Source: Sphaerodactylus townsendi (lineage: Eukaryota). Taken from it: a DNA stretch of 42,839 bases. The notes beneath the pieces are model-generated. The model saw nothing but the letters and a program-made list of their open reading frames with translations, made no database searches and was not told the DNA's origin. How positions within the stretch are numbered: position 1 is the stretch's first letter; the number at the start of each line of letters is the position of its first letter. Positions 25,251 to 32,881 of the stretch are shown piece after piece. The position numbers and the translations under genes were made by a program. The DNA lies in contig NC_059433.1 of assembly GCF_021028975.2 (NCBI RefSeq), forward strand, positions 93,207,162-93,250,000. The letters are read 5' to 3'.

Positions 25251-26409
25251 TAGCACATGAGTTCATCCTCCTTTGATACTATTCCCTCTAAATGCCATCA
25301 AGGGCTTGTGTCACTAAAATAGCATATACATGCTATCCAAGTCTAATATGATTTCATGGGCTGTTGTGTGATATTCTATTGAAAGATCTAGAACTGAGAC
25401 ACTGCAATCTTGATGCAGTACACAGATGAAAAGTGCAAGCTTTATCAATTTTTATTTTTCATTTCTGGGCCTAACAGGAGAGACTGGAATGGGTTCTGAA
25501 GATTGCCCATAAATGCTTATTTGGCAAAAAGGACAGGAGCATAATATTGTTTCAACAGGACGTACACATCTTAAATTCTCATTGCTTAACTGAGAATTTT
25601 TTTGGCATTAGAAACTGTTGACTGACTGGCAAAAGCTCCCTTGAGATAAATTAATCTGTGCAAACCACCATGTTCAGCTGTAATTGCTGTCCAGTAGCAG
25701 ACTGTGTCGAGTTAATAGTCTTTAGTTCATCAGAAATAAAAATCAGATTCCCTCTTGATAAACACAGAATAAATTGGTAATAGTGAAAGCAGTAGAAAGT
25801 AGGAAGTAGTCAAATCTTTGTGGAGTACTGTTTTTTCTGATCACAAACAAACTGTATATTTTTTCCTACCCAGATGGAAGGGAAATTTCTTTGAATTTTA
25901 CTAGCACCTAATTGCTTTCTTATTACTAAAATGTAATCAAAGCTCTCTGATTCTAAAGCATGGCAAGACACTATTGAAATGGATAGAGCCTGTATTTTGA
26001 CCCAATATTCCTGCATCCTGAAGGTCATACAGCCTCTGCTCCCAAGCCCTACATGACTTGGGACTGGGTTATCTGAATGACCATATGCATTTTAAAGGCA
26101 AGGTCTTACCAGAGACACAAGCTGAAGACCAAGAGCACAAGGGCTCTTGTCCTGTGGTTGTTCATTTGTAAAATAGTGAGTGGGAGAAGGTTTGCCACTA
26201 CTGGAAAGAGAGAGTTTCATCAGTTACATAATGGTTACTGACAGAACTACACCTATTGGACAATGCTGACACCCGTATACCATGACTAGCCCCCTGGTCT
26301 ATTATCACTAGAATGTTGATTATTGGATGTTTGAAGTCACAAGGATGTTAATTGTTGGATGTTTAGATGGTTAATTATTGTTTTGCCTGCAATCTTTATC
26401 TATAGCAGG

Positions 26410-26963
26410 ATGTCTGATGAATGCAATATTTCAGTGCAGTTGGGAACTGGTAGATATGGGGGTGGGATGTATCAAAGAAGGCCAGAACATGGTAATTAAG
26501 CTCATTGCCTATCTAATCTCTGTACCCTCCCAAGTGTTGGTGAGGTAAGGAGCCCTGTTTCCTCTACCTTTATGTTAACACTGTGTAATACTGGTTAGAA
26601 ATGGCACAAAACTGAACAACTGTTACAGGAAGAAGACATTGACCTGGCTGTGCAACGGAGACATAGTTGGAAGAAAATGATTTGGTGTGTTTGTCCCACC
26701 AATACCACCTGGTTATGCAGTCCTCCATCAATCATGCACAGTTGGCTGGGGAGGAGGAATGACCATTATCCTCCATGAGTCCTTCAACTTCCACATACCT
26801 CCAGTGAAAACTGCTACTGGCATGGATTGTATGTTCCTCATATTAGGGACTAATGATAGATTAGGCATTCTACTTGTTTACTGGCTGACTAATTGTCCAC
26901 TGGGCAATTGTCTGAATTGGCAGAGGTAATCTCAGACACCCAGACTGATTATTATGGGGAACT
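26410..26963 (+). mobile_element. Old L2 ORF2, part 1 (APE endonuclease N-terminus)
   Basis: LLQEEDIDLA..TET, PPGYAVLHQ, GWGGGMTIIL, RLGILLVY, PRLIIMG motifs with frameshifts. Confidence 0.8.
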
Positions 26964-27072
26964 GAAAAAAAATATACAAGGGGCTTGAAATTTAACATGG
27001 ATGAAAGGAGCATGCAATAACAAAAAAGATCTTGATTTTGCTCAACTGGGATTATGGTAATAGGAACATGGG

Positions 27073-27857
27073 TTGTGTTTCATTTGTGGAAAAACAGGGA
27101 GTAAAATAATCCATTTTAATTGGAAGGGGGTGTGCACCTTTGGAAATGTGGTAATTAATATGATCAAAAGTAATAATCTCCTACAATCAACAATTCTTAA
27201 TTTGGGAAGTTTTGTACACTGTATGAAAAGGTCTGAGAACATAGAAAATACTCTAGTTGCGAGAGCCACAGGGTTCCATGCTTTTGTGCATGCATTTCTC
27301 CCATGGCTCGGAGTGGAACAATTAGAAAGAGCTATTCGAAATATGTCTAAGGTTATAGAAAATGATTTTTGGGCCACAGCAGATAGTTTTCAAAATATAC
27401 AAAAAGAAATAGCATCCTTGGCAGCAGTAGGTGCTCAAAATTGGAAAGCTTTAGTTGTCCCAAATACTCAGCAAGGAGGCACGTGTACACTAATAAGCAA
27501 AATTTGCTGTTTTTATGTAAATAATGATGGTAATGTGACACGGATGTCAGTGCAATAAAAGAAGCAGTACAGGTTCTCCATAAAATAATTGAAGATCACT
27601 CTTAGATAGGCTTTTTAATTGGCTGCCCCAGCTGGATTGGCTAACAGTTCTGTTGGCAATAGATATTCAAACTGTAATAATTGGTGTTATGGTATTGTAT
27701 TCAATGTATGCCCTATTACTTTCAATTTTTGAATACATGCAGATCATTTAAAATAAAGCAAAAAGGAGAACCCATGATAGTCTGAACTACCACAGCCCCT
27801 CCTCCATATCGACAACTGCAGCCCACTGTTCAGTCCTCTTTCTATGAGAGTAAATAG
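27073..27857 (+). pseudogene. env: Gamma-type retroviral envelope remnant (SU C-terminus and TM)
   Basis: FICG..NWKGVCTFG, decayed furin site CMKR (27220-27231), fusion peptide FHAFVHAFLPWLGV, ISD QNWKAL..QQGGTC, CX6CC (CTLISKICC); frameshifted TM anchor and tail follow 27540. Confidence 0.9.
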
Positions 27858-27866
27858 GTCAGATTT

Positions 27867-27882
27867 GAAAAGGGGGGAAGAA
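27867..27882 (+). other. Polypurine tract
   Basis: GAAAAGGGGGGAAGAA just after the env stop, followed by TG at 27884. Confidence 0.8.
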
Positions 27883-27960
27883 CTGAAGACTGTAGTCAGA
27901 GAAAACACCTGCAGTGGTGAAAGTAATTGGAACGCAGCCTTCCTTGGTAGGCAAGGTCAG

Positions 27961-28162
27961 AGAAGTTAGGAAGTAGCTGTCCGGGAATACAAGATAGAGC
28001 TTGGCAAGTGTAACAGACTTGCCTGTAGAAATATTTATTTATTTATTTATTACTAATTTATTAATTAATTAGTAATAAAAAATAAAAAATATTTCTACAG
28101 GCAAGTCTGTTACACTTGCCAAGCTCTATCTTGTATTCCCAGACAGCTACTTCCTAACTTCT
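27961..28162. repeat. 202-bp foldback palindrome
   Basis: 76-bp arms 27961-28036 / 28087-28162 with one mismatch; AT-rich quasi-palindromic centre. Confidence 0.97.
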
Positions 28163-29492
28163 TTGTTAAATTTGTATACTGACCTCCCCCGAAGGGCTCA
28201 GGGCGGTTCACAACATAACTATATAAATACAATTAAATATATAAACAAATTCCATGCATCTTAATACCCCTCCCTGTTAAAATACAGCGCTCAATTACCA
28301 CATTATTATATTACAGAAGACAACAGATGGCGTCCGACAGTTTAAAACTCCCCTAAGGGGGGACAGTAGAACTTGCGATGTTAGAACGAGGGGGGGGGGC
28401 GTGTATCAGCGGCTGGCCTCCACAAAAGCCCGGTGGAACAGCTCGGTCTTGCAGGCCCTGCGGAACTCCTTAAGGTCCCGCAGGGCCCGGACTGCTGGAA
28501 GAAGAGCGTTCCACCAGGCAGGGACCAGAGCCGTAAAAGCTCTGGCCCGAGTAGAAGCTAGCCGCATCATGGAGGGGCTGGGGACCATGAGCAAATTGGC
28601 CTCTGCTGAGCGCAATTGGGACATATGGGGTCAGACGGACCCGCAGGTACGAGGGTCCCAAACTGCGTAAGGCCTTAAAGGTTAATACCAACACCTTGAA
28701 AATGATTTGGAACTCAACCGGGAGCCAATGCAGGTGGCACAACACAGGTAAAATATGATCTCTGATGGCACCTCCTGTGAGCAAGTGAGCCACCGCATGT
28801 TGGACCAGTTTTAATTTCTGAATCGAAGAGCATGAAGGCCAGCATAGAGCAAGTTACGTAAGTCTAATCTGGAGGTGACCGTTGCATGGATCGCAGTAGC
28901 TAGGTCCACTTGGGAGAGGAAGGGAGCCAGCTGCCGGGCCTGACGTAGATGGAAGAACGCAACCCGGGTTACATGGGCCACCTGGGTCTCCATTGAAAGA
29001 GAAGAATACAGGTGGACCCCCAGGCTGCAAACGGAAGGGGTTGGTGCCAATAAGGCCCCTTCCCAAACCGGTGGCTGAAAGCCCCCCACCCCCCCTCGCG
29101 GCCCAGCCAGAGGATTTCTGTCTTCGCTGGATTCAGTTTTAACCTGCTCTGTTTCAACCAACCAGCAACCACCTCCAAACAATGCTGGAGAGCTGCAGGG
29201 GCGGCGACCGCTCCCCTCTCCATCAACAGAATGAGCTGAGTGTCATCAGCATATTGGTGGCATGTCAGCCCAAAGCTCTGTACCAGCTGTGCAAGGGGTT
29301 GCATATAGATGTTGAATAACAGCGTGGACAACATCTCCCCCTGAGGCACACCGTAATAAAGCGGGCACCTCTGGGAGGCTTGGTCCCTGCACCACACTTG
29401 CTGACTGCGGTCCCGGAGGAATGAGGCAATTCACCGATGGATAATGCCCCACACTCCGGAAACGGCAGGCGGTGGGTCAAAAGATCGTGGTC
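28163..29492 (-). mobile_element. 5'-truncated L2-clade LINE (RT domain to 3' end), frameshifted
   Basis: GVPQG..LLFNIYM, HQYADDTQL, LKLNPAKTE, LHWLPV..FKVLVLTFKAL, RARAF..WWNAL; 3' end TGTGAACCGCCCTGAGCCCTTCGGGGGAGG. Confidence 0.93.
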
Positions 29493-29642
29493 CTGCGAGA
29501 TTCCAGTGCTTCTGCTTTTCACTGTTGGAACCTATTTGACTGTTAAATAAAGGATTATGTCTCTTGCCCTTGCCATGGTAAATTGGGAATGATCCAGTGC
29601 TAAGAATATGCCCTGCTGCCCAAAACTGGGGTATCAGACTTC

Positions 29643-29657
29643 TGGCGACTATGGCAG
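29643..29657 (+). other. Primer-binding site, probably tRNA-Arg(TCG)
   Basis: TGGCGACTATGGCAG versus expected TGGCGACCGCGGCAG (tRNA sequence recalled from memory); the three differences are all CpG transitions; 6 nt after TCA. Confidence 0.65.
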
Positions 29658-30089
29658 CAGCCTGGTGCTTGGTTCCTCTTAGGATATTTCCTCCCCAGCC
29701 ATTAGGAAGGTGTGCCCTGGGTGAGCAGCTTTGATTCTTGGTCCCTACAAACTGGGGGTGGGGGGGGAGCTCAAGGTGGATTCAACAGCCTCATTTCCTT
29801 TGAGTGAGACTTTTTTTTTGGAACTATATAGATGGAAACTATTGGATGGATTATCCCTGTTGAGGCATCATTGGTTTCGAGGGAAGGACATTTTGGTTTT
29901 ATGCAGAAGAATGGAATGTGGTTGGTCTGAATAGTGCCAGCAACTGTGGGTGTAAAGTAAAGCAGTTCTGCATTGACTGATTTTCCCTTAGGTGTGTCCT
30001 TTTGTGCTGGATTAGGCTTGCATCAGGATTGGACCAGCGAGCAAAATGAGTGTGTGTTAGATTGGCCTCACATCTGGATTGTGCAAGTG

Positions 30090-30168
30090 AGCAACAATAC
30101 ATTATCAGAGTTGGGTCAGGATTTTATAGCAACAATACATTATCAGAGTTGGGTCAGGATTGTATAGC
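30090..30168. repeat. 38-bp tandem duplication
   Basis: AGCAACAATACATTATCAGAGTTGGGTCAGGATT(T/G)TAT x2. Confidence 0.95.
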
Positions 30169-30416
30169 CTTTTTTAAACTGCCTTTGTCAGGATCTATTG
30201 ATCCCTGCAATAACCAAACTCTTGGGTTCAACAACTGGTTTATTAAATTAAATTAAACTAGAGGTAAGGCCAGGTGCTGGCCAGCCCAAAGGATGGGAAA
30301 GTAACTGCACACCCAAACCAAAGGAAAACAAGCCAGGGCTTCCCACTTTTCCCCCTGCTCCCAACCCACTCCATAGTTTCATGGCACGAAGCAGGGAAGA
30401 GCAGAAACTTTTAATA

Positions 30417-30503
30417 GGACTTAACAGAGTCTTCGCAGCTTTGGGTCTCTCCCAACATGTGAAAGAACTCACACCTTGGATCAAACTTTTGCACTGAATC
30501 TGA
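30417..30503 (+). mobile_element. Old L2 ORF2, part 2
   Basis: GGACTTAACA (remnant GDFN), AALGLSQHV, HTLDQTF endonuclease motifs. Confidence 0.7.
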
Positions 30504-31084
30504 GGCTGTTTCCGCATGGCCAGCTGAGTGAGAGTGCATCAGCATACTTTATGCCGATGCACCCCCTGGGACCGTTCACATGGACACACAGGCTGCGTCA
30601 TCCCCAAACAGTTCTTACCTCCTCTCGGCTGCCGCTGCTGTAGAAAGAACTGGGGACACGCCCCCGTAGCCATGGCAACCCCTCCAGGGACGGTGGCCAA
30701 AAGGTGTTGTTCCCTGGCCTCTCTACAGCAACAGCAGCGAGGGAAGGTAAGAGCAGGAAAAAAGCGGCAGGGCAAAACGCCGCCTTCCATCTGCTGCCGT
30801 TTGCATGGCAGCTGGTGGAAGTCGCTGCTTTCCAAAAAACTCGTTTGTTGAGCGAGTTTTGAAAGCAGCATTTTCGAGCTGCTTGATGGGTGCTAGCATG
30901 GCGCTGCTGTGATGCAGCAGCACCAGCTGTGTGAACAGCACAACAGCACAGCCTTAGAGTGAAAGCTTGATTTCAGGGCTAGAAATTTCCCCTGAACCAT
31001 GATATGATCACAACATAACTTAAAACCAGGGACGGTGTTTTTACCGTCCCTGGTGTGCTGTTTTCTGCCTGGGTGGAAACAGCC
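30504..31084. mobile_element. Harbinger-type MITE inserted in L2, containing a copy of its own flank
   Basis: TIRs GGCTGTTTCC / GGAAACAGCC; TSD TGA/TTA (one mismatch); multiple hairpins. Confidence 0.85.
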
Positions 31085-31159
31085 TTAGAGTGAAAGCTTG
31101 ATTTCAGGGCTAGAAATTTCCCCTGAACCATGATATGATCACAACATAACTTAAAACCA
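30948..31159 (+). repeat. Exact 81-bp direct repeat (30948-31028 and 31079-31159)
   Basis: Identical by eye; 50-bp spacer holds the MITE terminal hairpin. Confidence 0.97.
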
Positions 31160-31765
31160 AGGTCAATGTGGCTCCCATATCCCAAAAAATAGAGGGCCTG
31201 GTTGAAATGGTCTCATGAATCCTCCTGAATTCCAGAATGCTTTAGGATATTTTAGAATTCTAAACACGTACTCTGTTGAGATTGCAGTAGAAGCATGGAA
31301 CATGAAGCTTCTTGAAGCTATTGACAAGATTTCTCCATCACAACCTCTCCTGTGCTTGGGAAAAACCCAGCCCCTGAGTTTAACACAGAGCTGGGTGATC
31401 TGAAAAGGATTGGGAGATGTATAAAATGCCACTGGTTGAAAACTCACACTGAATCCACAGATTATGTTATAGAGTTCACTGGAAGTCCTAAGAAGCAGTG
31501 GTAACAATGGCTAAGAAATGCTACTTCTCTGCTACTATTGCATCAGCTAGCTCTTGGCCATCAGAATGAGACAATTAGTTGTGATACGTTTGTAAATTAA
31601 TACACTATGATTTAGAAGTTGACTGTAACATTGCCTGTAGCATTTATGGACCTCTTTGACCCAGTTTCTGTGATGCATGTTGACAAGCTCCTGGGATCTG
31701 TGAAGGCCACTGCTTGTGCCATGAATCCTTGCCCATCTTGGCTTTTAAAATCATGTAAAGACCAC
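31085..31765 (+). mobile_element. Old L2 ORF2, part 3 (end of APE and linker towards RT)
   Basis: P*YDH, LMNPPEFQNAL, WNMKLLEAIDKISP, AKKCYFSATIASASS, TACAMNPCPSWLLK motifs in L2 order. Confidence 0.8.
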
Positions 31766-32765
31766 ATCAACCCAGCCAATATCTCTTTTGACTTCATCAG
31801 AATAATGATCAGTGTAGATATCTAGGATGCAATTCTACATTTCCAATCCAACATGCTCAACACTTTCACTTATTTTCAAATGGGGAAGAAATTACAAAAA
31901 TAGGTATTGTGATGTAATTTTTCCTTTTAAAAAATTTATGAGCGCATCCAGGCACAATTTGAAACTGGAATACCAGTTTGGCCCTACTAATATATTTTCA
32001 GGAGTTTCAAGAAAAAATACTATAATGTAGTCTTCCCCCTGAGCATTAAGATATCACAATGAAACTTGGCATATTTGTTCATGCCAAACTGGTTATTATC
32101 ATCACACTCACAGTTCTACAGCCTGCCAAATAATAACCCTATGACCTTGTGCTGTCATTTCAGCTATTTACAGTTTTCTTTTAAAAGCATCCATGCATCG
32201 GATCATCCCTCTGTTGCTGGCTGTTATAGGTTCAGGAATTATTAGGTTGAGACTTACTTTGCTCCTGACATACAACAGAATGGAATAAAATGGAGAGGTC
32301 ATCAGCCTGTTCTCAGAAACACAAAGGGTAGCAATCCCTGCAGAAAATACTAGGTCTTTTAATATCCTTTGATACAGGCAATCACAAAATGCTGTCTTAT
32401 AGACATTGTCCTTTGGGATTGGATTAAGGATGTTTTGTAAATTATAGCATCTCATGATAATCAATATGGTATCATACTGAGTGCATATATTTAGGATCTA
32501 CATTAATCATGGATCAGTAATAAAACATTACAAATCTATTTAAGTCAACGAAGTCTGTAATCTTGTGCATATTTAGAAGTAAGCCCAATTAAAATCAACA
32601 AGATCTTCTTTCAAGAAATTGGATTGTAATTGGATGTAACTGCATGTCTGTTTGTATTGAAAATACTGATCTGTAGTCCTAGAAGACAGGAAGAAATTGA
32701 CTTAGGTGTGCGAATTTGCAGAATAGAGACAGAAAATGGATTGTGAACCCCTCTACTTGGTGCTT

Positions 32766-32881
32766 TGTGAGCTCCCAAAGGCACCTGGTGGGCCACTGCG
32801 AGTAGCAGAGAGCTGGACTAGATGGACTTTGGTCTGATCCAGCTGGCTTGTTCTTATGTTCTTATGTTCTTATGTTCTTAT
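32766..32881 (+). mobile_element. Severely 5'-truncated CR1 (3' UTR and tail)
   Basis: Identical to 958-1056; about four TTCTTATG tail units; TSD GTGCTT (32760-32765, 32882-32887). Confidence 0.95.

Follow-up and report, generated by a model that had tools for sequence, protein, structure and literature searches.

Integrase joins LTR ends to host DNA, and a canonical provirus has the order LTR-PBS-gag-pol-env-PPT-LTR, in which PBS is the primer-binding site and PPT the polypurine tract. A PPT-LTR-PBS junction occurs in one-LTR circles, in a circular reverse-transcription intermediate and in tandem proviruses, and is contained in neither linear cDNA nor genomic RNA. One-LTR circles, which are released when LTR-LTR recombination within a chromatid forms a solo LTR, are usually regarded as dead ends.

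Several systems related to the locus studied here have been described. In mouse zygotes, ERV fragments truncated at both ends are captured at double-strand breaks, and two natural MuERV-L cases are reported (PMC4516963). Tf1 and HIV-1 can insert independently of integrase by annealing of their PBS or PPT ends (PMC11042837). In the Drosophila germ line (testes) one-LTR circles are reported to be abundant or dominant and to integrate rarely (PMC12951756). Finally, a permuted order of sequence blocks is taken as a sign of circular intermediates (PMC7450558); PMC3245284 appears to concern such circle-mediated duplications as well.

The window, i.e. the whole stretch of 42,839 nucleotides analysed here, lies on contig C9 of the 1.81-Gb genome G000 and comprises, between 26 and 32 kb, a stack of nested repeats. 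The core of the structure holds: inside a host LINE, an element at 26965 to about 30090 appears from its sequence to consist of the end of env, a PPT, an LTR, a PBS for tRNA-Arg and then about 430 bases in the position of a leader. The features of the region are:

26186..26964, plus strand: old host LINE, ORF2 endonuclease region, ending at GDFN-like codons (genome matches, 66-81% identity)
26965..27867, plus strand: decayed 3' part of env (SU end, TM) and 3' UTR (Pfam TLV_coat; env relatives)
27868..27879, plus strand: polypurine tract (sequence; like motif and spacing after related env loci)
27884..28030, plus strand: 5' LTR piece (family match to 28008; 28009-28030 forms part of a short hairpin)
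28031..28165, no strand assigned: AT-rich LINE tail and fold-back copy (28079-28165 repeats 27958-28044 in reverse complement)
28166..29491, minus strand: younger, 5'-truncated high-copy LINE with reverse transcriptase (RVT_1, E 5.4e-17; very high contig depth)
29492..29636, plus strand: 3' LTR piece of the same family, ending in CA (family matches)
29643..29660, plus strand: decayed PBS for tRNA-Arg(TCG) (3' end of the genome's tRNA-Arg(TCG) gene)
29661..30085, plus strand: putative 5' leader (by its position behind the PBS only)
30090..30185, plus strand: host LINE resumes, including a 38-bp tandem duplication at 30090-30165 (LINE copies; 1 mismatch of 38)
30186..30437, minus strand: unrelated solo-LTR-like repeat, internally deleted (18 copies; 5-bp target duplication 30181-30185 / 30438-30442)
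30438..31771, plus strand: host LINE continues collinearly, interrupted by another repeat at about 30506-30947 (copies L039, L043/L045, L047, L048)

The order env-PPT-LTR-PBS differs from that of a canonical provirus, and TG..CA LTR termini are absent from both host junctions. Like the fragments captured in zygotes, the insert is truncated at both ends, lacks LTR termini, would have needed no integrase and is fixed in the germ line; the cases considered from PMC4516963 are collinear (internal sequence with or without part of an LTR), whereas the piece described here crosses the 3'-to-5' junction. As in the Drosophila circles, one LTR joins the 3' and 5' internal ends, but those circles are extrachromosomal and rarely integrate, while the insert is a fixed, partial chromosomal copy (PMC12951756). 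Tandem elements with a shared LTR (PMC5932611, PMC4079214 and PMC11042837; contig C1295 of this assembly) also have an internal LTR with a PPT before and a PBS after it, but their outer LTRs are retained, in most cases together with a target duplication; at the insert no outer LTR was found and no target duplication is evident. With circle-mediated permuted duplications (PMC7450558) the insert shares a block order reversed relative to the donor and only short indels at the acceptor site; those duplications involve host segments with a known donor, whereas here the sequence is retroviral and the donor was not found. In the Tf1 and HIV-1 insertions, too, host repair inserts retroelement cDNA without integrase, but there the inserted cDNA has PBS and PPT at its termini and not in its middle (PMC11042837). 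Break capture and circle-mediated permutation are each known, and their combination in a fixed ERV was not found described in the part of the literature covered.

The flanks of the insert are formed by one LINE, presumably an L2 as the initial annotation had labelled it. Among the 44 matches listed for 26186-26964, one of which is the window itself, the 14 copies fetched translate as ...RLI(I/V)LGDFNIH.... Downstream, the LINE restarts near 30090-30097, runs to 30185 and goes on from 30438. The LINE stretch unaccounted for between the flanks measures 14-17 nt in five copies and 25 nt in one, these six being the copies with two well-aligned anchors among the 14 examined (the other eight align poorly at one anchor). 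Host loss at insertion amounts to at most about 17 bases, a few of which may hide in 30075-30096. No target duplication is evident at the insert's ends, where up to 17 host bases are unaccounted for and the right breakpoint is uncertain by about 15 nt. The 38-bp duplication, judging from its sequence, probably arose too recently to have been left behind by the ERV insertion. Further downstream, a 91-nt direct repeat with copies 131 nt apart lies at 30948-31169, in host LINE adjoining the repeat at about 30506-30947.

On the left side, 27064-27558 is a gamma-type env piece comprising the SU end and TM (TLV_coat, E 1.5e-9; matches to syncytin and MLV TM), in agreement with the env first proposed there. 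It contains a stop-free frame at 27064-27555, corresponding to 164 residues, with stops just upstream and at 27556, and a CX6CC motif, as in gamma-type TM. Weak env homology restarts in a different frame at 27605-27721, while 26965-27063 is weakly env-like, with 2 of 12 relatives scoring above 97% of shuffles. Retroviral pol was not found in the insert, and a search of the window with 13 natural frames as probes gave no match to gag or pol. The env relatives in the genome belong to other families (51 matches listed, the best with 43% identity excluding the window itself), and the LTR copies tested showed no match to the 19 env loci fetched. Two of these relatives, L062 and L063 (G000:C14:42077538-42083086), are equal-score matches that lie about 4.6 kb from each other, one on each strand and both facing outward, and would represent an inverted duplication of an ERV end.

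The start of the env match lies about 805 bp from the PPT, compared with about 810-890 bp in related env loci. Locus L002 matches 27797-28008 without a break (79%), and because this match is continuous the 3' UTR, the PPT and the LTR starting at 27884 belong to one family, which bears out the PPT originally called before the LTR. With a PPT just before the LTR and a tRNA PBS a few bases after it, the element has the layout of a gamma-like ERV, which we take to be class I.

Both LTR pieces belong to one solo-LTR family of ~500-525 bp (69-80% identity), 27884-28008 corresponding to its 5' end and 29492-29636 to its 3' end, and both ends are matched in L005, L007, L008, L011, L012 and L079. Of 18 solo LTRs of this family examined, six had both ends found, and five of these six are flanked by 4-bp target duplications in which no more than one position differs. 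In family coordinates the two pieces do not overlap, and 205-250 bp of the LTR middle are missing at the younger LINE. Of the single LTR proposed for 27884-29636, the common family of the halves is thus confirmed, whereas its singleness is qualified by the missing stretch; one LTR appears to be the simplest reading of the two pieces. At the 3' end of the younger LINE the fold-back at 27958-28165 duplicates LTR and LINE tail in inverted orientation, with 5 mismatches of 87 between the arms and a short hairpin around 28003-28024. Its structure resembles the product of a template switch that took place while the younger LINE inserted or afterwards.

Nearly all copies found of this LTR family are without internal sequence. 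Among 31 distinct loci a PPT-like site is present in two (L002 and L013) and a PBS-like site in none within the 1.5 kb scanned from the match onward. Neither env nor a second LTR was found upstream of the PPT in L002 and L013, which have hardly any other internal sequence or none; in this comparison the first 5.2 kb of L107 were used, the remainder being simple repeat. The family therefore also undergoes ordinary internal deletion, as these two loci keep a PPT without env, and the near absence of internal sequence in the 31 loci fits extensive solo-LTR formation.

The PBS starts 6 nt past the CA of the LTR and matches the 3' end of tRNA-Arg(TCG) at 13 of 18 positions, which upholds the PBS assigned earlier downstream of the LTR. 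The three mismatches within the first 15 positions are all transitions at CpG sites. In L110, which has two LTRs and a weak Gag_MA match (E 0.0035), a closely similar site lies behind the 5' LTR. Over both strands of the 1.81 Gb a degenerate PBS pattern of fixed spacing was found 22 times, and a chance PBS directly behind the LTR is very unlikely (by our own arithmetic 1e-4 or lower, with any tRNA and several spacings allowed). None of the 21 other sites showed a convincing U5 or leader match, with one U5 score of 30 against a shuffle maximum of 28 and one leader score equal to its maximum. For the putative leader at 29661-30085 no homologue was found in a genome search that is insensitive (it missed L002's known 80% match), and its similarity to the leaders of L110 and C1295 stays within shuffles. 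Its end falls close to the position at which gag begins in L110, 435 nt past the PBS of that element; this agreement in length is suggestive only. A parent provirus, i.e. a second copy with LTR and PBS, was found neither by DNA searches nor by LTR-end/PBS patterns, searches that are weak in having missed the known 80% match. L110 itself (G000:C1:113569500-113574400) spans 4.9 kb, has two ~1-kb LTRs that are 99% alike and a PBS of the tRNA-Arg type, contains one frame with weak matches to Gag_MA and RNase H, and would be a recent, internally deleted ERV.

The sequence right of the resumed LINE has a different origin. It belongs to a repeat type of ~370-420 bp with TG..CA ends (L016-L034), and homology among its 18 copies ends at these termini with no continuation into gag. 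A 5-bp duplication with at most one mismatch flanks 7 of the 18 copies, compared with 1.8% expected by chance, and that of the window copy has one mismatch. The strand is suggested by a hexamer resembling a poly(A) signal, present in 7 of 18 copies; no internal region of this family was seen in the 18 loci. The initial annotation had extended the 5' internal start of the ERV over 29643-30416, with a splice donor at 30264 and an MG-type start at 30293, and had let the host LINE resume at GDFN codons after 30416 with a possible short duplication. The PBS and the presence of host LINE on both sides survive from this description. The supposed splice donor, the ATG and the bases after 30416 all lie within the repeat at 30186-30437, which removes the proposed duplication as well as the proposed point of resumption. 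The ATG opens three codons followed by a stop, and 30186-30416 gave neither a Pfam match nor a tblastn match with the Gag_MA-bearing frame. We rejected 30186-30416 as ERV leader or gag because host LINE separates it from the leader on the PBS side and because it has its own ends and target duplication. For 30186-30416 this outcome is one that the initial annotation had itself named as refuting it.

Contigs of further sequencing runs were compared with the assembly. Contigs of run X1 (organism A; 26766-28023) and run X4 (organism B; 26200-27968) cross from the LINE through env and PPT into the LTR start, and the stretch from LTR end through PBS to leader is crossed in X1 (29390-30119), X4 (29379-30136) and X6 (organism D; 29466-30119). 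The X6 contig, from a separate study, carries 13 other letters. The right junction is clearly bridged in X4 only, by 31 letters, and in the runs compared no contig crosses the younger LINE or spans the whole element. Evidence that the two halves are linked comes from the assembly, from LTR ends that are collinear and from the continuity of the host LINE. Run X1 is possibly the source sample of the assembly, and X1 and X4 come from one study; X6 has no cover at 26985-27769 and X5 consists of scattered pieces, so that these carry no weight on presence or absence. The element is common to related organisms, and an assembly error is unlikely. No empty site was seen among the contig joints listed, and no RNA data sets containing the element were listed.

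The longest matches of the host LINE show about 70% identity, the ERV piece about 80% to its best copies and the second repeat up to 86%, while the two fold-back arms at the younger LINE agree at 94% and 1/38 positions is mismatched in the 38-bp duplication. From these divergences we infer the age order host LINE, ERV piece, second repeat, younger LINE with fold-back, 38-bp duplication. The later events would be independent of the ERV insertion: the second solo LTR would have entered the host LINE at 30186, the younger LINE the LTR, with deletion and fold-back, and the 38-bp duplication would have formed by slippage. The locus is one decayed fossil; it shows no sign of function, and none is implied.

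Insertion without integrase is the best reading of the ERV piece because its parts stand in inside-out order, outer LTRs are lacking and the host LINE continues almost seamlessly across it. It is likely that DNA spanning the PPT-LTR-PBS junction of an old class I ERV, derived from a one-LTR circle or a tandem provirus, was joined by repair into a break in the host LINE in the germ line. The LTR is internal and both ends of the insert are non-LTR sequence with small target loss, as in break capture, while the PPT before and the PBS after the same LTR unit are as in a one-LTR circle. When seven natural LTR copies were compared with the two junctions, no outer-LTR remnant scored above shuffles at either, consistent with the absence of terminal LTRs noted at the outset. 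A break would have opened in the host LINE and host repair would have joined the junction-spanning DNA, one event accounting for everything. The most likely template, to which we assign somewhat over half of the weight of this reading, would be a one-LTR circle or circular reverse-transcription intermediate that had been broken or had lost part of its sequence by degradation; alternatively, repair may have copied the shared LTR of a tandem provirus elsewhere. Circle and tandem junction yield identical sequence and cannot be separated by sequence alone. Against a circle, germline circles are reported to integrate rarely (PMC12951756), and the internal sequence present amounts to only about 1.35 kb and most of the internal region of full-length relatives is absent, so that it is at best a circle fragment. 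The capture of a circle or tandem-junction piece proposed initially thus stands on order, missing outer LTRs and LINE continuity, whereas its evidence from the right side came from the unrelated repeat. Non-integrase insertion survives this misreading, since the PBS holds up and the return to host LINE lies about 330 bp before the point first proposed.

A wider version of the circle origin is held tentatively, at less than even strength: that host repair captured a one-LTR circle (or circular reverse-transcription intermediate), of which the insert is a fixed vertebrate germ-line fossil, and that it is one of an overlooked class of inside-out ERV remnants recording a second route of endogenisation that does without integrase and may draw on the circles of solo-LTR formation.

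Instead of repair, a tandem provirus (LTR-internal-LTR-internal-LTR) might have integrated normally at this site, two later deletions removing the outer LTRs and most internal sequence. Deletions are common at the locus, internal LTRs flanked by PPT and PBS are known (PMC4079214, PMC5932611 and PMC11042837), and the assembly contains the shared-LTR junction of another ERV family with PPT, one LTR and PBS on C1295, by which tandem-type templates are plausible in this genome. We nevertheless regard such a history as unlikely and, as proposed initially, less parsimonious, as the distances of the two deletion endpoints from the insertion point would have to add up to no more than about 17 nt, with every trace of LTR removed; TG at 26963-26964 and AACA before 30097 amount to 2-4 nt only and also fit the LINE. 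An 8-nt likeness of the left junction to the PPT-LTR junction is mostly explained by LINE copies and was set aside. C1295 is a 12.9-kb unplaced contig (L111, L112) with about 1.7 units of a 7.75-kb ERV, 97-99% alike and joined by one ~740-bp LTR, and is either a tandem provirus or the result of reading a circle through more than one turn.

The non-overlapping LTR pieces with a deletion between them would also agree with a captured two-LTR junction, from a two-LTR circle or a double insertion, if the younger LINE had removed about 750 bp and not about 230. This is quite improbable, given that the larger deletion would still have to leave exactly collinear ends and that two-LTR circles of nomad are minor (2.0% versus 43.9% for one-LTR full-length circles; PMC12951756). 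Slightly less credible still is that read-through RNA over a tandem or circular junction was copied in by the LINE machinery, by retroposition or template switch: insert and host LINE lie on the same strand and RT-coding LINE copies are abundant, but the 3' end has no tail, no target duplication is evident and the host LINE restarts beside its stopping point, a misfit with a simple template switch. An insert reaching 30416 and ending in a spliced leader and gag start is refuted, since its motifs, although present, sit in the dispersed repeat, beyond intervening host LINE and with no gag match.

The element is a real and unusual fossil, a variant of break capture, and is neither a canonical provirus nor provably a circle. 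If the preferred reading of junction-spanning DNA joined by repair is true, a heritable PPT-LTR-PBS piece with internal ends means that circle DNA or a tandem junction can enter the vertebrate germ line via repair. One old, decayed copy with no donor changes little alone. Repeat annotation would normally break such an element into unrelated fragments; a signature for a genome-wide count is an LTR with internal sequence on both sides within a continuous host repeat. Elsewhere in the window, identical 99-nt repeat ends at 958-1056 and 32766-32864, 31.8 kb apart, probably belong to a very young SINE-like family.
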